64,000 nucleotides of DNA from Gammaproteobacteria bacterium (GCA_965238175.1 CBDEGZ010000003.1:2336001-2400000), one strand, 5' to 3'; positions 19,085 to 44,471 are shown, counted from the stretch's first letter. Notes: generated from the sequence alone by a model not told the origin. Program-made: numbers and translations.

Positions 19085-19229
19085 TAGATCACTTAACCTA
19101 CATAAATGCACCACAGGTAGTAGTTTCACCTATGAAAGTAAATAAACTAATACCCGTTTCCCTTTTAAAATAGACTGGCTTTTTATGCGATAGATTTGGT
19201 GTGTTTTAGTTAACTTTTAATTAGGAATG

Positions 19230-19259
19230 ATTACAGAACATGTCTCTTAAGCATATAAT
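19230..19259 (+). promoter_or_regulatory. Candidate sigma70 promoter upstream of cassette array 1
   Basis: ATTACA-N18-TATAAT about 85 bp before the first cassette core; AT-rich context makes it weak. Confidence 0.3.
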
Positions 19260-19369
19260 ATTTAGAGAGATAAAATTGGTTGAGTCTCACTTTTCGTTTA
19301 TTTCAGAATGTTTTTATGCCCCATTTATGGGGTATATTTCTAGTTAGGACTCACAGCAGGTAAGTCGAT

Positions 19370-19573
19370 ATGGAAGCAAAGCTCAAACATCTCGAAATGA
19401 TCCAAGCTGTTATAAACCGAATGGCTGGAAATTCGTTTCTACTAAAGGGTTGGAGCGTTACATTGGTATCTGCATTGTTCGCTCTTGCTGCAAAAGATAC
19501 GAACTATTTTTTCATTTACCTTACATATTTTCCATCGCTATCGCTCGCACCCCATAGCATAGGCGTTATGTAA
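19370..19573 (+). pseudogene. Truncated membrane-protein cassette (HLEMIQAVINRMAGNSFLLKGW family) fused to an attC right arm
   Basis: Recognisable N-terminus ends at ...YLTYFP and runs directly into TCGCTATCGCTCGCACCCCATAGCATAGGCGTTATGT. Confidence 0.7.
19535..19571 (+). other. attC remnant (right arm only)
   Basis: Loop motif TCGCTATCGCTCG followed by ...TAGCATAGGCGTTATGT; left arm missing. Confidence 0.65.
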
Positions 19574-19577
19574 AAAC

Positions 19578-19969
19578 ATGAAAACTATCTACTGTATAAA
19601 AACTGATGGAATCAACGGGTACATAGAAGGTGTTAATAATCAAATTATCTCTTCCAATCCATCATACCATGAAAAATTTGGCTTGATAGGTTCAGACAAA
19701 TGGATAACCTTATATGAGGCTGGGAAAATTTCAAAAGATGTGAGGGCTGGAAGAATTTCATATATTGGTAAAGATAGATATGAACCCGACTGTGAACCAG
19801 ATGTAATTGAAATTGAAACTGACAGACGAACAATTTCCTACCCTAATGAAAAGGTTATTGGTTATCCGATGCAGTATCATTAGATCAATGGGTGAGTATT
19901 GAGTCTGTTAAAGTAAAGCTTCCAGAAGTAACATCGATTATTGATGTCAAAGTTGTACTATTGGCATAA
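19578..19969 (+). pseudogene. Cassette ORF, hypothetical protein, probably frameshifted near 19850
   Basis: Annotated ORF stops at 19883; an alternative frame from the GAAAAGG run reads GYWLSDAVSLDQWVSIESVKVKLPEVTSIIDVKVVLLA and stops at 19969, 2 bp before the attC. Confidence 0.6.
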
Positions 19970-19971
19970 GT

Positions 19972-20032
19972 ACATAACGAGTTGCTTCATCAGAACCTCG
20001 CTTCGCTCGTTCTGCTTAGCAAGGCGTTATGG
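19972..20032 (+). other. attC site (61 bp)
   Basis: ACATAAC...TTGCTTCATCAGAAC-CTCGCTTCGCTC-GTTCTGCTTAGCAAGGC-GTTATGG imperfect palindrome with both cores. Confidence 0.85.
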
Positions 20033-20042
20033 GTAAAAATGT

Positions 20043-20393
20043 ATGAACAGAGTATGGCGAGAAATAGCGGATCCCACAAAGCACTCTGATTTCATGAGTA
20101 CCACCAATGAAGGCGGTATCCCCATAGAAAAGAGCAGAGACAACTTAATTCAAAAGTGGGTATATTTGGCTGACGTTTGCAATTTTACTTTTCAATTCGC
20201 AAACATTGATCAAGTAAAGGAAGCAAAAGCTTACTTTGAAACAAAAGTTCACCCATCAACGCGGGGAGACCATCCGCCATTTGAACATTACTGGCATCCT
20301 TGGTATTGCAAATTACCCAGGGGAATCAATAAAGGGGCAAAGCGTCAAAAGGTACTAAAGGCGCTTAACAGTATATTAAATCAATGGGCATAA
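20043..20393 (+). CDS. Cassette ORF, hypothetical protein (distant homologue of 24942-25346)
   Basis: Between core GTTATGGGTAA and inverse TTACCCATAAA; intact 116-aa frame. Confidence 0.75.
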   Translation: MNRVWREIADPTKHSDFMSTTNEGGIPIEKSRDNLIQKWVYLADVCNFTFQFANIDQVKEAKAYFETKVHPSTRGDHPPFEHYWHPWYCKLPRGINKGAKRQKVLKALNSILNQWA

Positions 20394-20518
20394 TTACCCA
20401 TAAAAGGAAACATCGTTTCATTACTACTATTCTATTGGATACAGCTACTTTTTTTCTAGCTATAAAAAACATTAAATTACTAAAATACATTTTGGGTAAC
20501 TCTTAGGCTAGAAATGCA

Positions 20519-20734
20519 ATGCTGGCTTATGCTGTTTTAAACGTGGTTTTAATTCTATTCTTAGTATTTTTCATTCCAGAGAATAATGCTCTTGTAATGT
20601 GGATTGCTTTAATGCTTATGGCGCTGTTAGCTGCCATGTACTTTTATTTCTTTAAAAGCCAACGCGGTAAAGATGTTTTCAATAATTTTTATGGAAAAGC
20701 TAACAAAGCAATGTTACTAAAAGTCAAAGACTAG
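20519..20734 (+). CDS. Small membrane protein or 3' fragment of a decayed cassette gene
   Basis: Two hydrophobic segments; AGCTAACAAAGC near 20698 resembles an attC start. Confidence 0.4.
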   Translation: MLAYAVLNVVLILFLVFFIPENNALVMWIALMLMALLAAMYFYFFKSQRGKDVFNNFYGKANKAMLLKVKD

Positions 20735-20895
20735 GCTACCGCCCACAAATAAGTAGGTACAGGCCTTTCAAAATCGTATTACTCATTCAGTAATCAAGCA
20801 ACTCCAATATGAAACATTGGGCTTATACTCAAGAATTATAGGAGTCCAGTAAAATCAACCTTACAAATCTCACACATGAACAAACTTATTTCTGA

Positions 20896-21831
20896 TCAGT
20901 TTCTCTTTTTACGACGTGTTTTCTTGTTTTCTTTTTCTAGGCGCTTAGCCGCTTTTTTAGCACGTATAATTTCAAGTTCAGCCAATTCTTTTTTCATATC
21001 GGTAGGCAATTCAAGACTAATATTGCCCAGTTCACCGGTTCTAAATTCGATCAAAAATAATCTCGAAACTTTTTCCAGATCAACACTTCCTCCAGAACGT
21101 AAGCAGCCTCGTTTTGATCCAATTAATTCTAGTAATTCAAGTTCCGTTCCAGGCACAGAATCAAGTTTATATCGCACAGCAAGAAGTTCTGGATAGTTTT
21201 TGATCAAATATTCTGCCAGAAAAAAAGCCACGGCTGGATAATCCATTGCCGTGTCTCGAACAGCACCCGTAGCGGCTAAGCGAAAACCACTATTTTTATT
21301 TTCAACATTCGGCCATAAAATGCCCGGCGTATCCAATAATAGAAAATCTTCTTCTAATTTGATCCGTTGTTGTCCTTTTGTAACCGCCGGTTCATTGCCG
21401 GTTTTTGCAATAGTTCGTCCAGCCAGTTTATTGATCAATGTTGATTTTCCGGCATTCGGTATTCCAACAATCATCGCTGTTATTCGGCGATTATTATTGT
21501 CGATTTTATCTCTAATTTTTTCGCGGATTATACTCGGTAATTTTTTTATTGTTTCAGGTTTTTTAGTCGTGATTGGAATCGCTGCTTCGGTATTTTTTTG
21601 TTGATCAAAATACACTATCCACTGTTTTGTGATTTCACTATCGGCAAGATCGATTTTGCTCAAAATTTTAATGCATGGCTTATCACCACGTAGATCGGCA
21701 AGCATTGGGTTTTCGCTACTAAAAGGAATTCGCGAATCAAGGATCTCTATGATCAAATCAACCTTAGGTAAGGATTCTTTGATCTCTTTTTTGGCCTTGT
21801 ACATATGGCCGGGATACCACTGGATTTGCAT
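20896..21831 (-). CDS. ylqF: Ribosome biogenesis GTPase YlqF/RbgA
   Basis: IQWYPGHM, DSRIPFSS, GIPNAGKSTLIN, DTPGILWP. Confidence 0.95.
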   Translation of the reverse strand: MQIQWYPGHMYKAKKEIKESLPKVDLIIEILDSRIPFSSENPMLADLRGDKPCIKILSKIDLADSEITKQWIVYFDQQKNTEAAIPITTKKPETIKKLPSIIREKIRDKIDNNNRRITAMIVGIPNAGKSTLINKLAGRTIAKTGNEPAVTKGQQRIKLEEDFLLLDTPGILWPNVENKNSGFRLAATGAVRDTAMDYPAVAFFLAEYLIKNYPELLAVRYKLDSVPGTELELLELIGSKRGCLRSGGSVDLEKVSRLFLIEFRTGELGNISLELPTDMKKELAELEIIRAKKAAKRLEKENKKTRRKKRN

Positions 21832-21912
21832 TAGCTTTCTAGATTCATATGAAAACCAAAGAGAGTATCAGGAATTAATGATTTAACCAGCAGATTAAAC
21901 CTAATTAACCTG

Positions 21913-22378
21913 ATGTGATGGTCCCCTCCCCCTTTCCAGCATCTCGGTGCCATGATTGAGCTTTACAAACAATCAACTGGGAGAAGGCCACCATGATGAT
22001 TACAACAATTGGATTAGACATAGCAAAAAACGTATTTCATATTGTTTGCTATAATAAACAAGGGTGATTAATCAGCAAGAAAATACTAAAGCGAGCATAC
22101 GTCTTGTCATTTTTCCAATCACAACCAGCTTGCCTGGTGACAATAGAACCCTACGCAATTTTGCAGTATTGGGCCCGCGCGATACAACACCATGGACATC
22201 AAGTGAAGCTGCTACCTCCCAACATGTCCACGCGTATTGATAACAAGAATGATTATAACGATGCCCTGGCCATCGCCGTTGCCGCGAACCACCAAGTATA
22301 GGGCTGATAGTTCCGAGTGCGTATTTCAATGAAGTGGGGAATGAGGCACATGATCGTAACGGACGTAATATATCTGCG
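21913..22378 (+). pseudogene. Decayed IS110-family (IS1111-like) element
   Basis: Left end ATGGTCCCCTCCCC; ATG 21993 MMITTIGLDIAKNVFH, stop at 22065, YWARAI..GHQVKLLPP, KNDYNDALAIA, then after a deletion PSIGLIVPSAYFNEVGN..RNGRNISA. Confidence 0.85.
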
Positions 22379-22387
22379 TTATTTTTA

Positions 22388-22613
22388 TTATGTATTTTCT
22401 TCTTTGAGATCCATTAGATCTTTTTCAGTAACCCAGTCAGCGGTTTCAGATATGACCTCTTAACTAGCCAAGTAAATATATTTTTATATTTGGCTTTGGT
22501 TGAGAGGCATTCGGCCTCTCGTTTATCTGATCAAGTTAGATGGAAGCTTATTACAGCTTTTTGCACTTCTCCATTGCTGATTCAAGTTTCTTTATATCTT
22601 CGATAATACTCAT
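22388..22613 (-). pseudogene. Decayed terminal cassette ORF
   Basis: MSIIEDIKKLESAMEKCKKL* right after core GTTAGAT; later fragment ISETADWVTEKDLMDLKEENT*. Confidence 0.45.
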
Positions 22614-22625
22614 ATCTATCCGCGT

Positions 22626-22730
22626 ATCTAACATCCAGCTCACTGAGCAAATTTTTGATGGCGGCTTTTGTGTATGTTTCTGCGCAAAAGGTGACAGTGG
22701 AAGTTTGTCTGATGCAGCCGTTAGTTATGT
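22626..22730 (-). other. attC site (105 bp)
   Basis: On + strand ATCTAAC...GTTATGT with imperfect internal palindrome; 3 bp after the stop of the cassette ORF. Confidence 0.75.
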
Positions 22731-22733
22731 GTT

Positions 22734-23120
22734 TTAGTCTCCAAAGAATAGCACGGCTTTATTGCTCTCTTTGGCTTCTAAAACTATGGCTTTGAACTTG
22801 CTTAAGAAATTAGTAAATTCAGATTTTGACACCGTTTTGTATATTTCTTTTTTTTCGGGTTTAATTTGTGTGCCTACATGCTCTTTCCATATGTCGGTTT
22901 TCTTTTGAACTCTATCACCGACTTCACGCACCAATCTTTCTAAGTGCGCTAATTCATAAGGTTTAAAAATTGCGTAATCATATAATGTAACAAGTTTACC
23001 CGTTACTTTATGAAGCTTTTCGAATTCAGGACTGATAACCCAAAAGTAAACTTCTGGATCAAAGGCGAGCCTTACATGCATTGTTTCAAAGTCATCACCA
23101 ATTCCTATTGTAAGAGACAT
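22734..23120 (-). CDS. Cassette ORF, hypothetical protein
   Basis: Intact 128 aa between matching GTTATGT/ACATAAC cores; AGGA RBS. Confidence 0.8.
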   Translation of the reverse strand: MSLTIGIGDDFETMHVRLAFDPEVYFWVISPEFEKLHKVTGKLVTLYDYAIFKPYELAHLERLVREVGDRVQKKTDIWKEHVGTQIKPEKKEIYKTVSKSEFTNFLSKFKAIVLEAKESNKAVLFFGD

Positions 23121-23133
23121 AACCGATTCCTAT

Positions 23134-23259
23134 ACATAACGCCTTGCCAAGATGTGCGTAACGCAGTTCCCAAGCTTCTGAAATTCACCTTGTTCACTAA
23201 GCTCACCGCAAACCCAAAATGCTACGCGTTGTGCATCACTCTTAAGCAACTTTTTAGCA
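23134..23259 (-). other. attC site, VCR/VXR-like (126 bp), inverse core mutated
   Basis: ACATAACGCCTTGCCAAG...TAACGC...CTACGCGTTG...CTCTTAAGCAACTT-TTTAGCA; length and landmarks recall Vibrio cassette repeats. Confidence 0.8.
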
Positions 23260-23264
23260 GAATT

Positions 23265-23666
23265 TTACTTCTTATGCTTGTTGTATAAAGAGTCTATCGA
23301 ATAATTAAATAGCTCTTTAATATGTTGTTTGGCTTCTGGAATTGAAACTAAATCAAAGCTTACTGAAACCGAGTTACGGCCAAAGATATTTAAGAAACCT
23401 GGTTTAATAACGATCTCTAAATCTAACAACCCAGCATCCTTTTCTACAGGTATGAATTGATAGCTAGCGAATTTGCTATTGTAGTCACCTAACACAAAGA
23501 GTAAACCGCCGCCTTCATCAAGTTCTTCGAACAGCTCAAGTTCTTTAACCCAAGGATAATTATCAATTATTTCACAAGCTTCACGATGAAGATTGATATC
23601 CCGCTGATGATCAACAAGTTCAGTTCCACCTTCCCGATGTTGATAATGTGCTTTAATTAGATTCAC
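23265..23666 (-). CDS. Cassette ORF, hypothetical protein
   Basis: GAGGA RBS, GTG start, intact 133 aa; flanks ATTCTGCTAAC and TTTAGCAGAAT are complementary. Confidence 0.8.
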   Translation of the reverse strand: MNLIKAHYQHREGGTELVDHQRDINLHREACEIIDNYPWVKELELFEELDEGGGLLFVLGDYNSKFASYQFIPVEKDAGLLDLEIVIKPGFLNIFGRNSVSVSFDLVSIPEAKQHIKELFNYSIDSLYNKHKK

Positions 23667-23682
23667 TAAACTTTCCTCATTC

Positions 23683-23752
23683 TGCTAACGTCTGCCACAA
23701 CGAGTAACTGGAACGCAGCGTAAGTTAATCCAATTGCTGGCGCTTGTTATGT
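23683..23752 (-). other. attC site (70 bp)
   Basis: TGCTAAC..GCCA..TAACT-GGAACGCAGCGTA-AGTTA..TGGC..GTTATGT. Confidence 0.8.
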
Positions 23753-23787
23753 GTACTATCCGACTTCATAGTCCTCTCAATGCTATC

Positions 23788-23910
23788 AATTTATCAGTTC
23801 TGACGCTGGTATATAATCCCTGCAAATTTCTCGGTACCTACTATTCTTGTTCTGAATAGAAATTTCATATGAATACCAATCCTCTGGATTTTTTGTAATG
23901 GAGTCATAAG
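23788..23910 (-). pseudogene. 3' fragment of a cassette ORF
   Basis: YDSITKNPEDWYSYEISIQNKNSRYREICRDYIPASELIN* with no start, joined to a half attC. Confidence 0.45.
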
Positions 23911-23923
23911 AAACTTGTTATGT
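23908..23923 (-). other. attC remnant (inverse core and spacer only)
   Basis: Minus strand ACATAACAAGTTTCTT directly after the stop of 23927-24223. Confidence 0.6.
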
Positions 23924-23926
23924 GTT

Positions 23927-24223
23927 TTACTCATAGAATTTTCCAGCATGTAATATATGGGCTGCTCTTTTCCATGGGTTTGTAGGTTTCTCATAAAACT
24001 CAAGTCCACTAACTGAAGCCTGGCCCCACGCCAACGCTGCATCAAGATATGATACAATATCACCATTTTCCCAGCCATTAACTCCTGGGCTGTAAGGCGA
24101 ACTGGGATTTACTTTTTCTTTTTTTTCTTCATCGTTACGATCTTCCATTAGTGCTTCTACAAAATTCAGGAAGTCTTGCTCTGTTTCTACGTTATCAGCT
24201 AGTTGGTATAGATCTTTATTCAT
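23927..24223 (-). CDS. Cassette ORF, small acidic immunity-like protein
   Basis: GWEN..YLDAALAW..NPW...AGKFYE pattern; AGGA RBS. Confidence 0.8.
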   Translation of the reverse strand: MNKDLYQLADNVETEQDFLNFVEALMEDRNDEEKKEKVNPSSPYSPGVNGWENGDIVSYLDAALAWGQASVSGLEFYEKPTNPWKRAAHILHAGKFYE

Positions 24224-24239
24224 GTTTTCCTACGTAGAT

Positions 24240-24296
24240 ACATAATGCCGCAATTAATAGCAAGCGTAGCGCATCCATTACATTATTTTGTTATAT
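24240..24296 (-). other. attC site (57 bp, degenerate; core GTT changed to ATT)
   Basis: ACATAATGCCGC..TAAT..CAAGCGTAGCGCATCC..ATTA..TTGTTATAT. Confidence 0.65.
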
Positions 24297-24306
24297 TTTC
24301 ACTTAA

Positions 24307-24825
24307 TTAATAATTGATAAAAACAAGATCCTTATTTCTATCAGAAGTTATTTTGAAAATATAACTTATTTCATCTATATAATTAGTTTCTGCTGCATAA
24401 TCAGGAGCGTTTTTTAGAAAAAAATCTTTAGCTTCTTCTAATTGATTAAATTTAATACTATAAATATCAGGCCAATCATTTGAAGCGGGGATTGGGATGA
24501 ATGCTTTAAAATTCCCATCCGTTACTTCTGATAAGTATGATAAAAACTCTTCTCGTTCGATCTGCTCTCCAAAATCCCTACACATCATTTCATAGATATA
24601 ACCATAAATATAATGATGTGTTTCATCTCTTGTTATCGCGCCATTAATGATATCAGCTAGACAATCGCGATACACTTGGGGTTCTATTTCAAACCAATTT
24701 GCTCCTTCCTCAATATCACCCTTATGCTTAGCCATAAAATCATCTAAAAACTCTGTATTTTTACTTCCCCAAAGTTCTGCTATTTTTGAGGCATCTACTT
24801 GAAAAGCCATAGTGTTATAACTCAT
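24307..24825 (-). CDS. Cassette ORF, acidic hypothetical (immunity-like) protein
   Basis: MSY...VD...GSK...YGY.YE..C..FG...IPIP...DWP...DLVF.NY pattern; intact 172 aa. Confidence 0.8.
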   Translation of the reverse strand: MSYNTMAFQVDASKIAELWGSKNTEFLDDFMAKHKGDIEEGANWFEIEPQVYRDCLADIINGAITRDETHHYIYGYIYEMMCRDFGEQIEREEFLSYLSEVTDGNFKAFIPIPASNDWPDIYSIKFNQLEEAKDFFLKNAPDYAAETNYIDEISYIFKITSDRNKDLVFINY

Positions 24826-24865
24826 AAATCTTTCTCAACCTCATTATTTATTCAATGCGACTAAA

Positions 24866-24936
24866 ACATAATGCTGCGCTTTGTGGCTGTTGTGGAACGC
24901 AGCGAAACAACAATCCGAAACAGCACTTTGTTAGCA
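24866..24936 (-). other. attC site (71 bp; core GTT changed to ATT)
   Basis: ACATAATGCTGCGCTTTGTGG-CTGTTGT-GGAACGCAGCGAA-ACAACA-ATCCGAAACAGCACTTT-GTTAGCA. Confidence 0.8.
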
Positions 24937-24941
24937 GTGAA

Positions 24942-25346
24942 TTACGGGTAAAGTAACTTCAAGTTACATAAGCCGCCTTCAATTGTTTTAATATACTTTT
25001 CTCTCTTTGGCCATGGCTTAAGTTTGGCAGGTAGCCTACTTAACCAATGACGATTTGGGCCGTAAACCACCTGCCGTTTTTGAGTTAACTGTGTTGATGT
25101 AGGCATGTTCTTTTGACAAACGACATCAAGAAAATGCTCGACCTCTTCAACTGAGGCGAATTCAAGCTCAACTCCCAAAATATCAATAATAAGTCGAGGA
25201 AACCCCTTCGTTGGAATGACGCGAGGGAGAGCTGGTTCATATAGTGTTGCATGCGGCCAAGCGTCACCGTCCAAGTGTTTATGAACCCAGAAACTCAATG
25301 GACTAGGCCTGTACTCCTTAGTAAATTCAATTCTCCATTTCTTCAT
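24942..25346 (-). CDS. Cassette ORF, hypothetical protein (distant homologue of 20043-20393)
   Basis: ATG at 25346 (MKKWRIEF...); the longer track start lies inside the attC. Confidence 0.8.
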   Translation of the reverse strand: MKKWRIEFTKEYRPSPLSFWVHKHLDGDAWPHATLYEPALPRVIPTKGFPRLIIDILGVELEFASVEEVEHFLDVVCQKNMPTSTQLTQKRQVVYGPNRHWLSRLPAKLKPWPKREKYIKTIEGGLCNLKLLYP

Positions 25347-25357
25347 GATGAGTGTAC

Positions 25358-25424
25358 TACTAACGACAGAGATCAAGGATTTCTGAGCGAAGCGAAGAAA
25401 TTCCTCTGCAGCTCATAGTTAGAC
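25358..25424 (-). other. attC site (67 bp)
   Basis: CTAAC/GTTAG, GAG/CTC, AGGA/TCCT, TTTCT/AGAAA stems, loop GAGCGAAGCGA, extrahelical bases on one arm. Confidence 0.88.
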
Positions 25425-25432
25425 TTTGTTTT

Positions 25433-25777
25433 TTACCAAGGATCTATTTCAAAGTTTCTCATCCAACGCTCATAACCATCGAGCATTTTTTTTGATTCCT
25501 GTGGATCTAAAATACCATTATTTTCAACACTACTTAACTCTCCCCAATATTGTATTGAAGAAAGTAAATACCAAATCATGTCTACTCCGCTATTATAGTC
25601 CTCTTGAGATAGAGACGGAAATTTCTTTTTAACGTGATCTGGGATAGTTTCTTTTGCTGTTATTTCTTCAAATAAATCACTAAGGAATAAGCCTTGTTTT
25701 GATAACCCTAAACCTTGTTTTATTACACCACCTTCATCTGATTTTGATAACCAAGATACTTTAGATATTTTTTCCAT
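25433..25777 (-). CDS. First cassette ORF of array 2, hypothetical protein
   Basis: Intact 114 aa; AGGTGAGAC before ATG is both an RBS and a 1-mismatch match to the expected core GTTAGAC. Confidence 0.75.
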   Translation of the reverse strand: MEKISKVSWLSKSDEGGVIKQGLGLSKQGLFLSDLFEEITAKETIPDHVKKKFPSLSQEDYNSGVDMIWYLLSSIQYWGELSSVENNGILDPQESKKMLDGYERWMRNFEIDPW

Positions 25778-26257
25778 TGTCTCACCTGATGTTGAACAAT
25801 GTGCACATAGTGCTGATTTTACATGATAAGAAACATTAGTTAATTTCTTGTCATGTGTCTTTTTTTATGAGTAATCTTGTAATAGGGATAAAAGAGGTTA
25901 TTTACCACTTGGCATTAATATTTCCTTTTTTTATTTTAGTCTATCGCCGCAATAATTGAATAAATCCAAGCTCTGCATATTTATAATGCTCGCCTGTGGA
26001 ATTATCAATGACCCTAAAAACATTAAAAGACAATCAGTTAGATGAAAACACTGTGACTATTTTGTCCAACGGACTTCTTTTAGTGGCTATTAAAGTGGAG
26101 TTGCGTAGCAATAACAGGCTATTGGAAACAACTTCAACGCAAAGAGGCGCTAAAAGAAGTCTGCTGGATGGGTATTTCTTATCCCGAGTCAAGGTTATTT
26201 GATAGGCCAATAAATAAACTGATAACTAAAGCAAGAACGAACTACAATAGTTTCAGG

Positions 26258-43245: not shown

Positions 43246-44471
43246 TGTAGAAATTCAGATTTGATCTGACAGTTACCCAATTATCAGTAACCGACTGTCA
43301 GGTTAAGTTTAATTCACAAACTTTTCCTTCCAGATAGCTTGTCCGTCGATGAGTGTTTCCATCGGCGTCCTCCCGCAGCACATTTTGCCTTGGTGAGTTC
43401 GTTGAGTATTGTATTTGAGCAACCATTCGTCAAGGTCGAGTTGCAGTTCATCAATCGATTGGTAAATTTTCTTACGCAAAGCGACTTGATAAAACTCATT
43501 GAGGATCGTCTTATGGAATCGCTCACAAATACCATTCGTCTGAGGTGATTTGACCTTGGTTTTGGTGTGTTCGATATTGTTCAACGCCATATAAAGCTGA
43601 TAATCATGCTGGTCAGCTCGCCCACAATACTCCGTCCCTCTATCTGTCAAAATGCGCAACATAGGCAAACGTTGTTCTTCGTAGAATGGGAGGACGCGGT
43701 CATTGAGCATGTCAGCTGCCGTAATCGGTGTTTTAGTCGGGTACAGTTTCGCGTGAGCGACCTTGCTGTAAGTATCAACAAACGTTTGTTGATAAACCCG
43801 ACCAATGCCTTTGAAAGTACCGACATAGTAAGTATCTTGCGAGCCAAGATAACCAGGGTGTGCCGTCTCTATCTCGCCACAAGCCTCATCGTCGTCTTTC
43901 TTGCGTTCCATCGCCGCGACTTGAGACTCAGTGAGGATCAAGCCTTCACCAGCTACCTTATCAGACAATGCCTTCAGGCGATCTTTAAAGCAAGCAAGAC
44001 CATGACGAAGCCAGATACAACGAACGCCACTGGGTGAGACAAATGTTCCCCGTTTGCGCAGCTCGTTACTGGTGCGCGTTTGACCATGTGCGGGCTCTTC
44101 CAGTGCATACTCGAGCACAACGGTTTCAATAGCCGGGTCGATTCTGTTTTTAAGATTTGGGGTACGCCGATTACGATCAAACAAGGCTTCTACACCGCCT
44201 TCATCAGCCGCTTCTTTGTAGCGATAAAATGTATCTCTGGACAAACCCATCATCTTGCAGGCTTTTGAGACATTGCCGAGTTCTTCAGCGAGATTGAGTA
44301 GACCAACTTTATGTTTTATAACTTTGTCATTAGTATGAATCATGAGAGTTACCTCTTTGTGTTTTGATGTTTACGTTGCAGTTACATCAAAGCGGGTAAC
44401 TCTCACTAAATCAAGCGTCGCTACGCTCCGCTTGATTTAGTGATGTGTCAGATTGGGTCTAAACTTCTACA
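43246..44471 (-). mobile_element. Complete IS481-family insertion sequence (1226 bp)
   Basis: TGT...ACA ends; 26-bp imperfect TIRs (20/26 match); GATTATA duplicated at 43239-43245 and 44472-44478. Confidence 0.95.
43309..44343 (-). CDS. IS481-family DDE transposase
   Basis: N-terminal HTH, GSQDT, LTDRGTEY, PQTNGICERF, YN..R.H. Confidence 0.95.
   Translation of the reverse strand: MIHTNDKVIKHKVGLLNLAEELGNVSKACKMMGLSRDTFYRYKEAADEGGVEALFDRNRRTPNLKNRIDPAIETVVLEYALEEPAHGQTRTSNELRKRGTFVSPSGVRCIWLRHGLACFKDRLKALSDKVAGEGLILTESQVAAMERKKDDDEACGEIETAHPGYLGSQDTYYVGTFKGIGRVYQQTFVDTYSKVAHAKLYPTKTPITAADMLNDRVLPFYEEQRLPMLRILTDRGTEYCGRADQHDYQLYMALNNIEHTKTKVKSPQTNGICERFHKTILNEFYQVALRKKIYQSIDELQLDLDEWLLKYNTQRTHQGKMCCGRTPMETLIDGQAIWKEKFVN

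Follow-up and report, generated by a model that had tools for sequence, protein, structure and literature searches.

In the chromosome of a gammaproteobacterium (Gammaproteobacteria bacterium, GCA_965238175.1), two short arrays of integron gene cassettes point toward each other from either side of the core gene ylqF, and neither has an integrase beside it. We consider it probable that these are two independent, decaying attC-site clusters that have no integron-integrase (CALINs), left by integron activity in a genus that is rich in chromosomal integrons. The window, meaning the whole 64,000-nucleotide stretch that we analyzed, corresponds to C3:2336001-2400000 (C3 is contig CBDEGZ010000003.1) of a genome of 3.35 Mb (three contigs, 40% G+C); coordinates without a contig prefix count from its first base. 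The arrays lie amid core genes, with an MltD-like transglycosylase gene and aas upstream, ylqF inside the span, and a roadblock/LC7 gene and metH downstream.

attC sites on both sides of ylqF

We searched the window (E<=10) with two covariance models, both derived from the main integron array of the same genome, located outside the window. Model R1, which rests on an alignment of 13 short attC sites with the R''/L''-L'/R' pairing as its structure, was run with filters off; model R2 was built from 29 main-array sites, themselves found with R1. R1 gave nine matches, and the best four all fall in the span that an initial annotation had flagged as convergent + and − arrays flanking ylqF, each on the strand it had claimed: 19972-20032 (+; 39.1 bits, E 2.5e-7), 23683-23752 (−; 34.2 bits), 24240-24296 (−; 33.9 bits), and 24866-24936 (−; 27.4 bits, E 2.4e-4). 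R2 scored the same sites at 30.6 bits, 31.7 bits (E 9e-6), 31.2 bits, and only 16.5 bits (E 0.11), respectively. It also matched two long sites on the − strand, 23134-23259 (126 nt; 20.5 bits, E 0.0089) and 22626-22730 (105 nt; 16.3 bits, E 0.12, a full-length match). The best six of the ten R2 matches coincide exactly with coordinates picked by eye beforehand. Weaker candidates include site 25358-25424 (−), which reached only 13.1 bits with R1 (E 1.1) and was missed by R2, and the half-site of the first + cassette (~19530-19571), which was read by eye and scored by neither model. The remaining four R1 matches are at chance level (E 1.2-9.4). Rfam gave no match in the window at its gathering threshold, which is uninformative since it holds no attC family.

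The cassette boundaries do validate themselves by core pairing, as had been proposed. Among eight cassettes, the variable core complements its own inverse core at 4/4 positions in six and at 3/4 in two, and the mean self-match over the eight variable bases is 5.9 versus 3.5 in non-self pairs. Only 2 of 40320 permutations of the pairing reach the observed total. Two of the examples in the initial annotation, 20394-20404 and 23253-23263, end in AAA, not AAC. Single-strand folding is less informative. The bottom strand of 19972-20032 folds at -13.7 kcal/mol (z -4.6) and is the sole standout among seven candidate sites; the others range from z +1.1 to -1.8, the latter for 25358-25424, whose fold pairs R'' with R' at -8.2 kcal/mol. 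Because these z-scores are mostly near background, folding energy alone cannot validate sites. Regular-expression and fold heuristics for attC were dropped as too unspecific.

Could the sites simply be chance inverted repeats between ordinary small genes? Five of the seven candidates fold no better or only modestly better than shuffled sequence (z +1.1 to -1.8), and our promoter and terminator scans stayed at background levels, as such a reading would predict. Set against this are model E values down to 2.5e-7 with the top matches all in the span and on the correct strand, the permutation result, the insertion of this DNA relative to related genomes, and a third cassette that is also a cassette elsewhere. 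Together these make chance repeats extremely improbable, and we treat the scored sites as established attC sites.

Cury et al. (2016; PMC4889954) describe a CALIN as at least two attC sites clustered within 4 kb, with no integrase nearby. In the − array, a stretch of 2.8 kb contains five sites with E values between 9e-6 and 0.12, and one weak site as well. The + array that had been annotated is thinner. One intact attC (19972-20032) bears it out; otherwise it has one site truncated ~20 nt past R'' and one eye-read 3' half-site, and it might count as a single-site element. As annotated, the window holds no tyrosine recombinase gene: PF00589 matched none of the 56 open reading frames (ORFs) scanned, and TIGR02249 has no match there. 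The nearest TIGR02249 match above cut-off, the genome's intI, is 179 kb away, so no integron integrase lies within 4 kb (or 10 kb) of either array, and the annotation was right to see integrase-less cassette arrays here (CALINs, less surely for the thin + array taken alone). The features of the span are as follows; G001 to G006 are six congeneric genomes.

19111..19346, + strand: leader comprising an orphan attI region and a promoter-like motif (homology to G002 and G001 copies)
19314-19346, + strand: attI core, a hairpin plus GTTA crossover (alignment of copies)
19343..19571, + strand: cassette 1, truncated PDC-M50A-like gene (ORF 19370-19573, 67 aa) fused to an attC 3' half
19565..20032, + strand: cassette 2, ORF 19578-19883 (101 aa, no family), intact attC 19972-20032
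20026..20418, + strand: cassette 3, ORF 20043-20393 (116 aa), attC cut ~20 nt past R'', R'' reading AAA not AAC
20419..20895, + strand: inserted DNA with a 71-aa two-helix membrane ORF (20519-20734), sub-threshold Pfam matches only, no attC match
20896..21831, − strand: ylqF (rbgA-type ribosome-biogenesis GTPase), host core gene, MMR_HSR1 E 8.7e-17, present in 6/6 congeners
21896..22383, + strand: degenerate insertion sequence (IS) remnant of the IS110 family, IS positions 17-421 and 768-859 with an internal deletion
22384..22625, − strand: tail of the − array, remains of cassettes including a 20-aa mini-ORF; R'' box 22535-22541, remainder of the site non-canonical, core/inverse core 4/4, no model match
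22626..23140, − strand: cassette, ORF 22734-23120 (128 aa), long attC 22626-22730, weak PADLOC match (E 0.0044), otherwise no family
23134..23689, − strand: cassette, ORF 23265-23666 (133 aa), 126-nt attC 23134-23259 with R'' reading AAA, 8/8 variable bases complementary
23683..23926, − strand: attC 23683-23752 and a 170-nt cassette fragment before it; R''-only remnant 23917-23926, read from a duplicated 12-nt R'' string
23927..24246, − strand: cassette gene, 98 aa, DUF7660 (PF24693, 33.9 bits vs cut-off 27)
24240..24872, − strand: cassette, ORF 24307-24825 (172 aa), DUF7691 (PF24740, 66.5 bits), attC 24240-24296 with R' reading ATT
24866..25364, − strand: cassette, ORF 24942-25346 (134 aa), attC 24866-24936 with R' reading ATT
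25358..25785, − strand: first gene of the − array, ORF 25433-25777 (114 aa), weak attC-like site 25358-25424, no recognizable 5' boundary, no attI
26007..26189, + strand: palindromic repeat (183 bp) like a miniature inverted-repeat transposable element (MITE), 92% identity to the copy that follows the IS at C3:3331952, 8 or more others in the genome

Across both arrays the cassette genes comprise 10 ORFs (67-172 aa), the 20-aa mini-ORF, and at least two fragments. Pfam recognizes two of the 10 ORFs above cut-off (DUF7660 and DUF7691), PADLOC gives one strong match (PDC-M50A, truncated), PHROGs matches one, and NCBIfam matches none of the 10. An Atlas look-up of two cassette proteins, one of them from ORF 24942-25346, returned unnamed clusters only.

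Origins of the two arrays

Both arrays are insertions, since related genomes have aas, ylqF, and the roadblock gene side by side. In four of the six congeners (G001, G003, G004, and G006) aas and ylqF stand tail to tail about 50 bp apart, and the gap between ylqF and the roadblock gene is 97 bp in G002 and ~560 bp in G004; in the present genome the two gaps measure 1.8 kb and 4.4 kb. ylqF has the same orientation relative to aas and the roadblock gene as in the relatives. R1, applied to the ylqF loci of five of the six (the 4.6-kb contig of G003 was left out), gave one weak match, in G002. The head of the + array is common to G002, and the − array is absent from G002 and from the five other congeners. 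Neither outcome that the initial annotation had named as refuting it came about: an attC model scores the sites, and the relatives do not carry the same genes. Integrons are not the only reason why the gap between ylqF and the roadblock gene varies within the genus: in G001 it holds 6.4 kb of other genes (L012 3142-9502: one ORF that is oxidoreductase-like, a large one resembling a membrane transporter, and two more) with no attC match. G005 and G006 have different neighbors.

The + array begins with an attI site. Its leader (19111-19346, 235 bases) is present once in this genome and is 76% identical to two copies in G002. The first G002 copy stands just before a 245-aa gene, an attC (R2 E 0.0035), a small ORF, and ylqF; the second, 98% identical to the first, lies directly past aas at a contig end and is followed by a different cassette. 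A genus-wide search found the leader's last ~40 nt in four of seven genomes. In G001, whose integron is complete, the matching block (G001:C81 at 96-135) lies ~150 bp upstream of intI (281-1222) on the other strand, which is the attI position, and the window's attI core is 88% identical to it over 33 nt. Seven aligned leader copies have an invariant block made up of a hairpin with a 9-bp stem, nine bases, and GTTA, with complete divergence beyond GTTA and weaker similarity along ~150 nt of the spacer between intI and attI. Each of the seven carries a different first cassette. Homology to an intI-adjacent site, together with a crossover between G and TT and variable cassettes downstream, identifies this region as attI. 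Read instead as a long attC, the leader was rejected, for its folded form lacks R''/R' pairing. The best sigma-70-like match in the leader region (19230-19259) agrees with the consensus at 10/12 positions, as a consensus match only.

The gene of cassette 1 matches residues 1-58 of the 134-residue PADLOC family PDC-M50A (E 2.2e-24) and phrog_19896 (E 3e-20) and is cut after residue 57. By eye, the first cassette of the complete integron in G006 encodes a protein whose N-terminus resembles this truncated gene (19370-19573); judging by these similarities, cassettes with this PDC-M50A-like candidate defense gene may be common in the genus. Cassette 3 is demonstrably mobile between lineages on sequence grounds. 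Copies with 86-89% amino acid identity occur in attC arrays of an uncultured Pseudomonadales and of a Cellvibrionaceae metagenome-assembled genome, and the DNA homology begins at the GTT core and extends into R'', with 84% mean column identity. Both foreign copies keep a full attC (39.3 bits in the L030 copy), which the window copy has lost. Beyond cassette 3, the DNA at 20419-20895 is without homology to G002 until 20879.

The attI homology points to the + array (19111-20418) as what is left of a second, G001-type integron, one that would have kept its attI and promoter-bearing leader and lost its integrase gene. It would already have sat between aas and ylqF in the common ancestor with the closest relative, G002, and after the split cassettes would have been swapped at the attI crossover.

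The − array had a different beginning, as far as its surroundings tell. Relative to G002, the inserted block runs from ~21890 to ~26230 (by eye). It ends with the MITE-like repeat and starts with the IS110-family remnant, whose element exists in 25 near-identical full copies in this genome; the remnant covers element positions 17-421 at 79% and 768-859 at 71% identity and has a weak DEDD_Tnp_IS110 match. The array itself comprises at least seven cassette units on the − strand, the direction in which the roadblock gene and ylqF also run, and distally it ends in a deletion junction, at position 859 of the IS. Its DNA has no match in the six congeners, nor elsewhere in the genome. We propose that the − array (22384-25785) was gained in this lineage alone, inside an old IS110-family element that would have inserted beside the MITE-like repeat between ylqF and the roadblock gene. 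It could have arrived by IS-associated transfer of a piece of an array, or by integrase-mediated insertion at a non-att site followed by growth.

IS elements of the attC-targeting IS1111 type insert inside an attC site. The present element does otherwise: the eight intact copies that we inspected adjoin the MITE-like repeat or other sequence, not attC, and the window remnant joins the array at an IS-internal position. The palindromic repeat, ~185 bp long and present in the window and in ~8 further genomic copies, stands directly downstream of many IS110-family copies, and it may be the preferred target of the element. The overall IS load is very high, with ~60 IS481-like copies (one in the window, 43279-44449) besides the 25 of the IS110 family, all 99.5-100% identical, which implies recent bursts.

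The resident integrase, probable array decay, and rival origins

TIGR02249 has six matches in the genome, none of them in the window. One is above cut-off (C3:2174968-2175916; 396 bits vs 265), and the other five are the N-terminal piece of this same intI and XerC/D-like genes. The reading frame of intI ends after 43 codons and continues in the +1 frame, and a run of five T lies at or close to the break. The frameshift is reproduced with 0 differences in contigs from two public runs, and the indel rate of the assembly is low (3 gap openings over 24 IS copies). Next to intI, on the opposite strand, the main array has 29 attC sites on one strand across 17 kb of small genes, with sites of the form ...TAAC AAG ... 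GGC GTTA...; its more than 19 attC sites beside intI mark it as a sedentary integron, if one whose integrase is not intact. This IntI is 46-49% identical to the IntI proteins of the congeners, which differ mutually by 33-52%, and its own intI-proximal attI differs in sequence from the orphan attI of the + array. At E<=0.01, a genome-wide R1 count covering 150 of 616 first-look candidates gave 36 matches, of which the main array accounts for 23, the region at 2017-2027 kb for 6, that at 1288-1289 kb for 2, a spot at 706 kb for 1, and the window for 4.

Three observations concern arrays and attI sites elsewhere. The CALIN at C3:2017-2027 kb (+ strand, 6 R1 matches) begins right after an inverted IS481-like copy (2015434-2016604), and the main array ends at two copies of the same element (2154939-2157300; the arrays with their IS copies span C3:2015434-2027546 and C3:2154939-2174186). 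Since IS recombination across the terminus would rejoin both arrays in one direction, this CALIN looks like a distal part of the main array detached by an IS-IS inversion, as far as sequence can tell. A second orphan attI at C3:3306370-3307020, of the type beside intI in G006 (72% identity over 167 nt, ending GTTA), is followed by one 144-aa cassette whose attC R'' pairs with the leading core, with no adjacent integrase. Lastly, a contig from run X3, another organism in another study, carries the first main-array cassette (L007 17117-17730) with 4 differences in 614 bases and other flanks, which suggests that this cassette was recently shared between organisms. We do not read the joints at attC sites in X3 contigs as excision circles; the simplest account is similar attC repeats in another organism.

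The window sites are in poorer condition than those of the main array. Crossover triplets are mutated in three of the seven full window sites (one AAA, two ATT) versus 1 of the 29 main-array sites (Fisher p 0.018), which keep AAC in 29/29 cases and GTT in 28/29; three further window sites are truncated. The mutated triplets and truncated sites suggest that the arrays are no longer serviced. We infer that both are now largely frozen, because the sole intI is frameshifted and of another lineage and many of the window boxes are mutated or truncated. Their cassettes could be expressed by read-through from the upstream co-oriented host gene, aas for the + array and the roadblock gene for the − array. 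Orientation may matter as well. The cumulative GC skew peaks at ~2.05-2.10 Mb, and the main array is near the replication terminus. The attC bottom strands lie on the leading-strand template in the main array, the 2017-2027 kb CALIN, and the − array of the window, and the + array is opposite. In Vibrio the leading-template orientation is stable and the opposite one favors excision. The eroded state of the + array would fit its orientation.

Several findings weigh against two independent, decaying CALINs. The full-length cassette ORFs are all intact, which argues that the decay is not old and fits recent arrival or selection as well as it fits a fossil array, and an integrase could be supplied from elsewhere. 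The two public runs that show the frameshift are not independent, for they share one sample, from which the assembly was probably made. In the + array, the left ~90 bp of the leader has no match to the G001 spacer between intI and attI, and the 26 bp between the aas stop and the leader contain no integrase remnant, which leaves this short of a complete integron. Given these two points, the integrase loss is something we infer, not something we see: the initial annotation's suggestion of a lost intI fits an array that still begins with attI, and finds no trace of the gene beside the leader. As to how the − array came about, none of the three attI types of the genus matches at its head, which lacks a clear boundary and starts with the weak 13.1-bit site that R2 missed, and two other sites reach only E 0.11-0.12 with R2.

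It had also been suggested that a single integron was divided by an inversion, with loss of intI; such an ancestor would have stood between aas and the roadblock gene. Two arrays that face each other and share an attC family invite this thought, and IS-mediated inversion does seem to have split an array in this genome, as at the IS481-like copies of the 2017-2027 kb CALIN and the main array end. We nevertheless regard it as very unlikely here. An inversion ending in an array would flip or exclude ylqF, which has kept its ancestral orientation and lies between the two; G002 shares the head of the + array, and the − array is absent from G002 and five more congeners; and the flanks are unrelated, with an orphan attI heading the + array and an IS remnant and a MITE-like repeat bordering the − array, and no active IS copy adjoins either array. 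More plausible, though on balance doubtful, is that the − array was seeded by cassette insertion at a non-att (attG/secondary) site inside the IS, not by transfer of a block. Insertion at GWT sites is efficient experimentally and has been proposed as a source of small CALINs (Loot et al., bioRxiv 10.1101/2022.09.11.507474). An array head without attI, a dead IS as a harmless target, and co-orientation with the upstream host gene all agree with it. However, at least seven cassette units are many compared with the one or two typical of such events, neither end shows a recognizable junction (the distal end being the deletion at IS position 859), and the 38% of CALINs that neighbor an IS are read by Cury et al. 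(2016; PMC4889954) as a sign of IS-mediated rearrangement.

The remaining proposal, a hotspot that a distant or incoming IntI loads in trans, using the orphan attI as a working landing pad, depends on whether past or present activity is meant. For the past it is plausible, given seven attI copies that each have another first cassette. The 98% identical leaders of G002 carry different cassettes in an assembly that is 98% complete and yielded only XerC/D-like matches in place of intI, though as a draft of 80 contigs it may leave intI unassembled. CALIN cassettes can moreover be moved in trans (Cury 2016, PMC4889954). A hotspot that is still live seems unlikely to us: the sole intI is frameshifted, 46-49% identical to its counterparts in the congeners, and accompanied by a different attI, and the window sites have mutated triplets in three of seven and truncations in three more. 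Two separately derived, decaying arrays remain our preferred account.

A related and broader idea is that in this genus attI-plus-promoter modules without an integrase may stay functional as "orphan landing pads," onto which a resident or passing integrase would load cassettes in trans. Orphan attI modules do occur at several chromosomal places, in several species, and with at least two attI types, and loading in trans would account for the different first cassette of each copy, including the 98% identical pair in G002. We put this forward as a speculation with the odds against it. If it is true, the integron platform can be divided into parts that survive and work separately.

Comparison with known integron systems

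What this locus offers is a clean, dated example of how integrase-less arrays may originate: one by integrase loss with attI kept, its neighbor by a separate route, and a third, at 2017-2027 kb, by IS-IS inversion. The orphan attI copies provide a simple test of attI function in trans without a local integrase. For annotation, about ten small genes here are better labeled integron cassettes than core genes. CALINs, their IS neighbors, integrase loss, and secondary-site insertion are already in print (PMC4889954; bioRxiv 10.1101/2022.09.11.507474, as far as the portions considered here extend), and the present locus is a further example. The sole feature for which we found no published description is the orphan attI repeated over places and species; the phrase search was swamped by unrelated matches and does not imply absence from print.

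The window arrays resemble the CALINs described in the portions of Cury et al. (2016; PMC4889954) considered here in having attC-bounded cassettes, no nearby integrase, and genes mostly of unknown function. Like half of the reported CALINs they belong to a genome that encodes IntI elsewhere, and like 38% they have an IS neighbor. The origins proposed for CALINs there (integrase loss, IS rearrangement, secondary-site insertion) are those considered here. Unlike usual CALINs, the + array keeps an identifiable attI, a feature that IntegronFinder annotates for classes 1-3 only, and two arrays of separate origin bracket one core gene. With the attG insertions and single attC sites lacking integron-integrases (SALINs) of Loot et al. 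(bioRxiv 10.1101/2022.09.11.507474), in the part of that preprint considered, the locus shares cassettes outside att sites that are readable from host promoters, a possible origin of the − array. The − array differs in far exceeding the single cassettes of that description in size and in showing no identifiable GWT junction.

At the scale of the genus, the situation is similar to that of Xanthomonas integrons at ilvD as presented in the portion considered of a recent preprint (bioRxiv 10.1101/2025.06.18.660453): a genus-wide system, progressive integrase inactivation, and intI-less arrays at fixed positions across related species. In contrast to that one ancestral platform, the congeners here have very divergent IntI (46-67% identity) and at least three attI types, and the shared position, between aas and ylqF, is found in two species only.

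The sedentary chromosomal integrons of marine gammaproteobacteria such as Vibrio have a long array with a species-typical attC family. The main array here, with its 29 attC sites in 17 kb beside intI and near the terminus, is of this type. The window arrays, in contrast, are short, degraded satellites, and the attC bottom strands of the + array lie on the template strand opposite to that of the main array.

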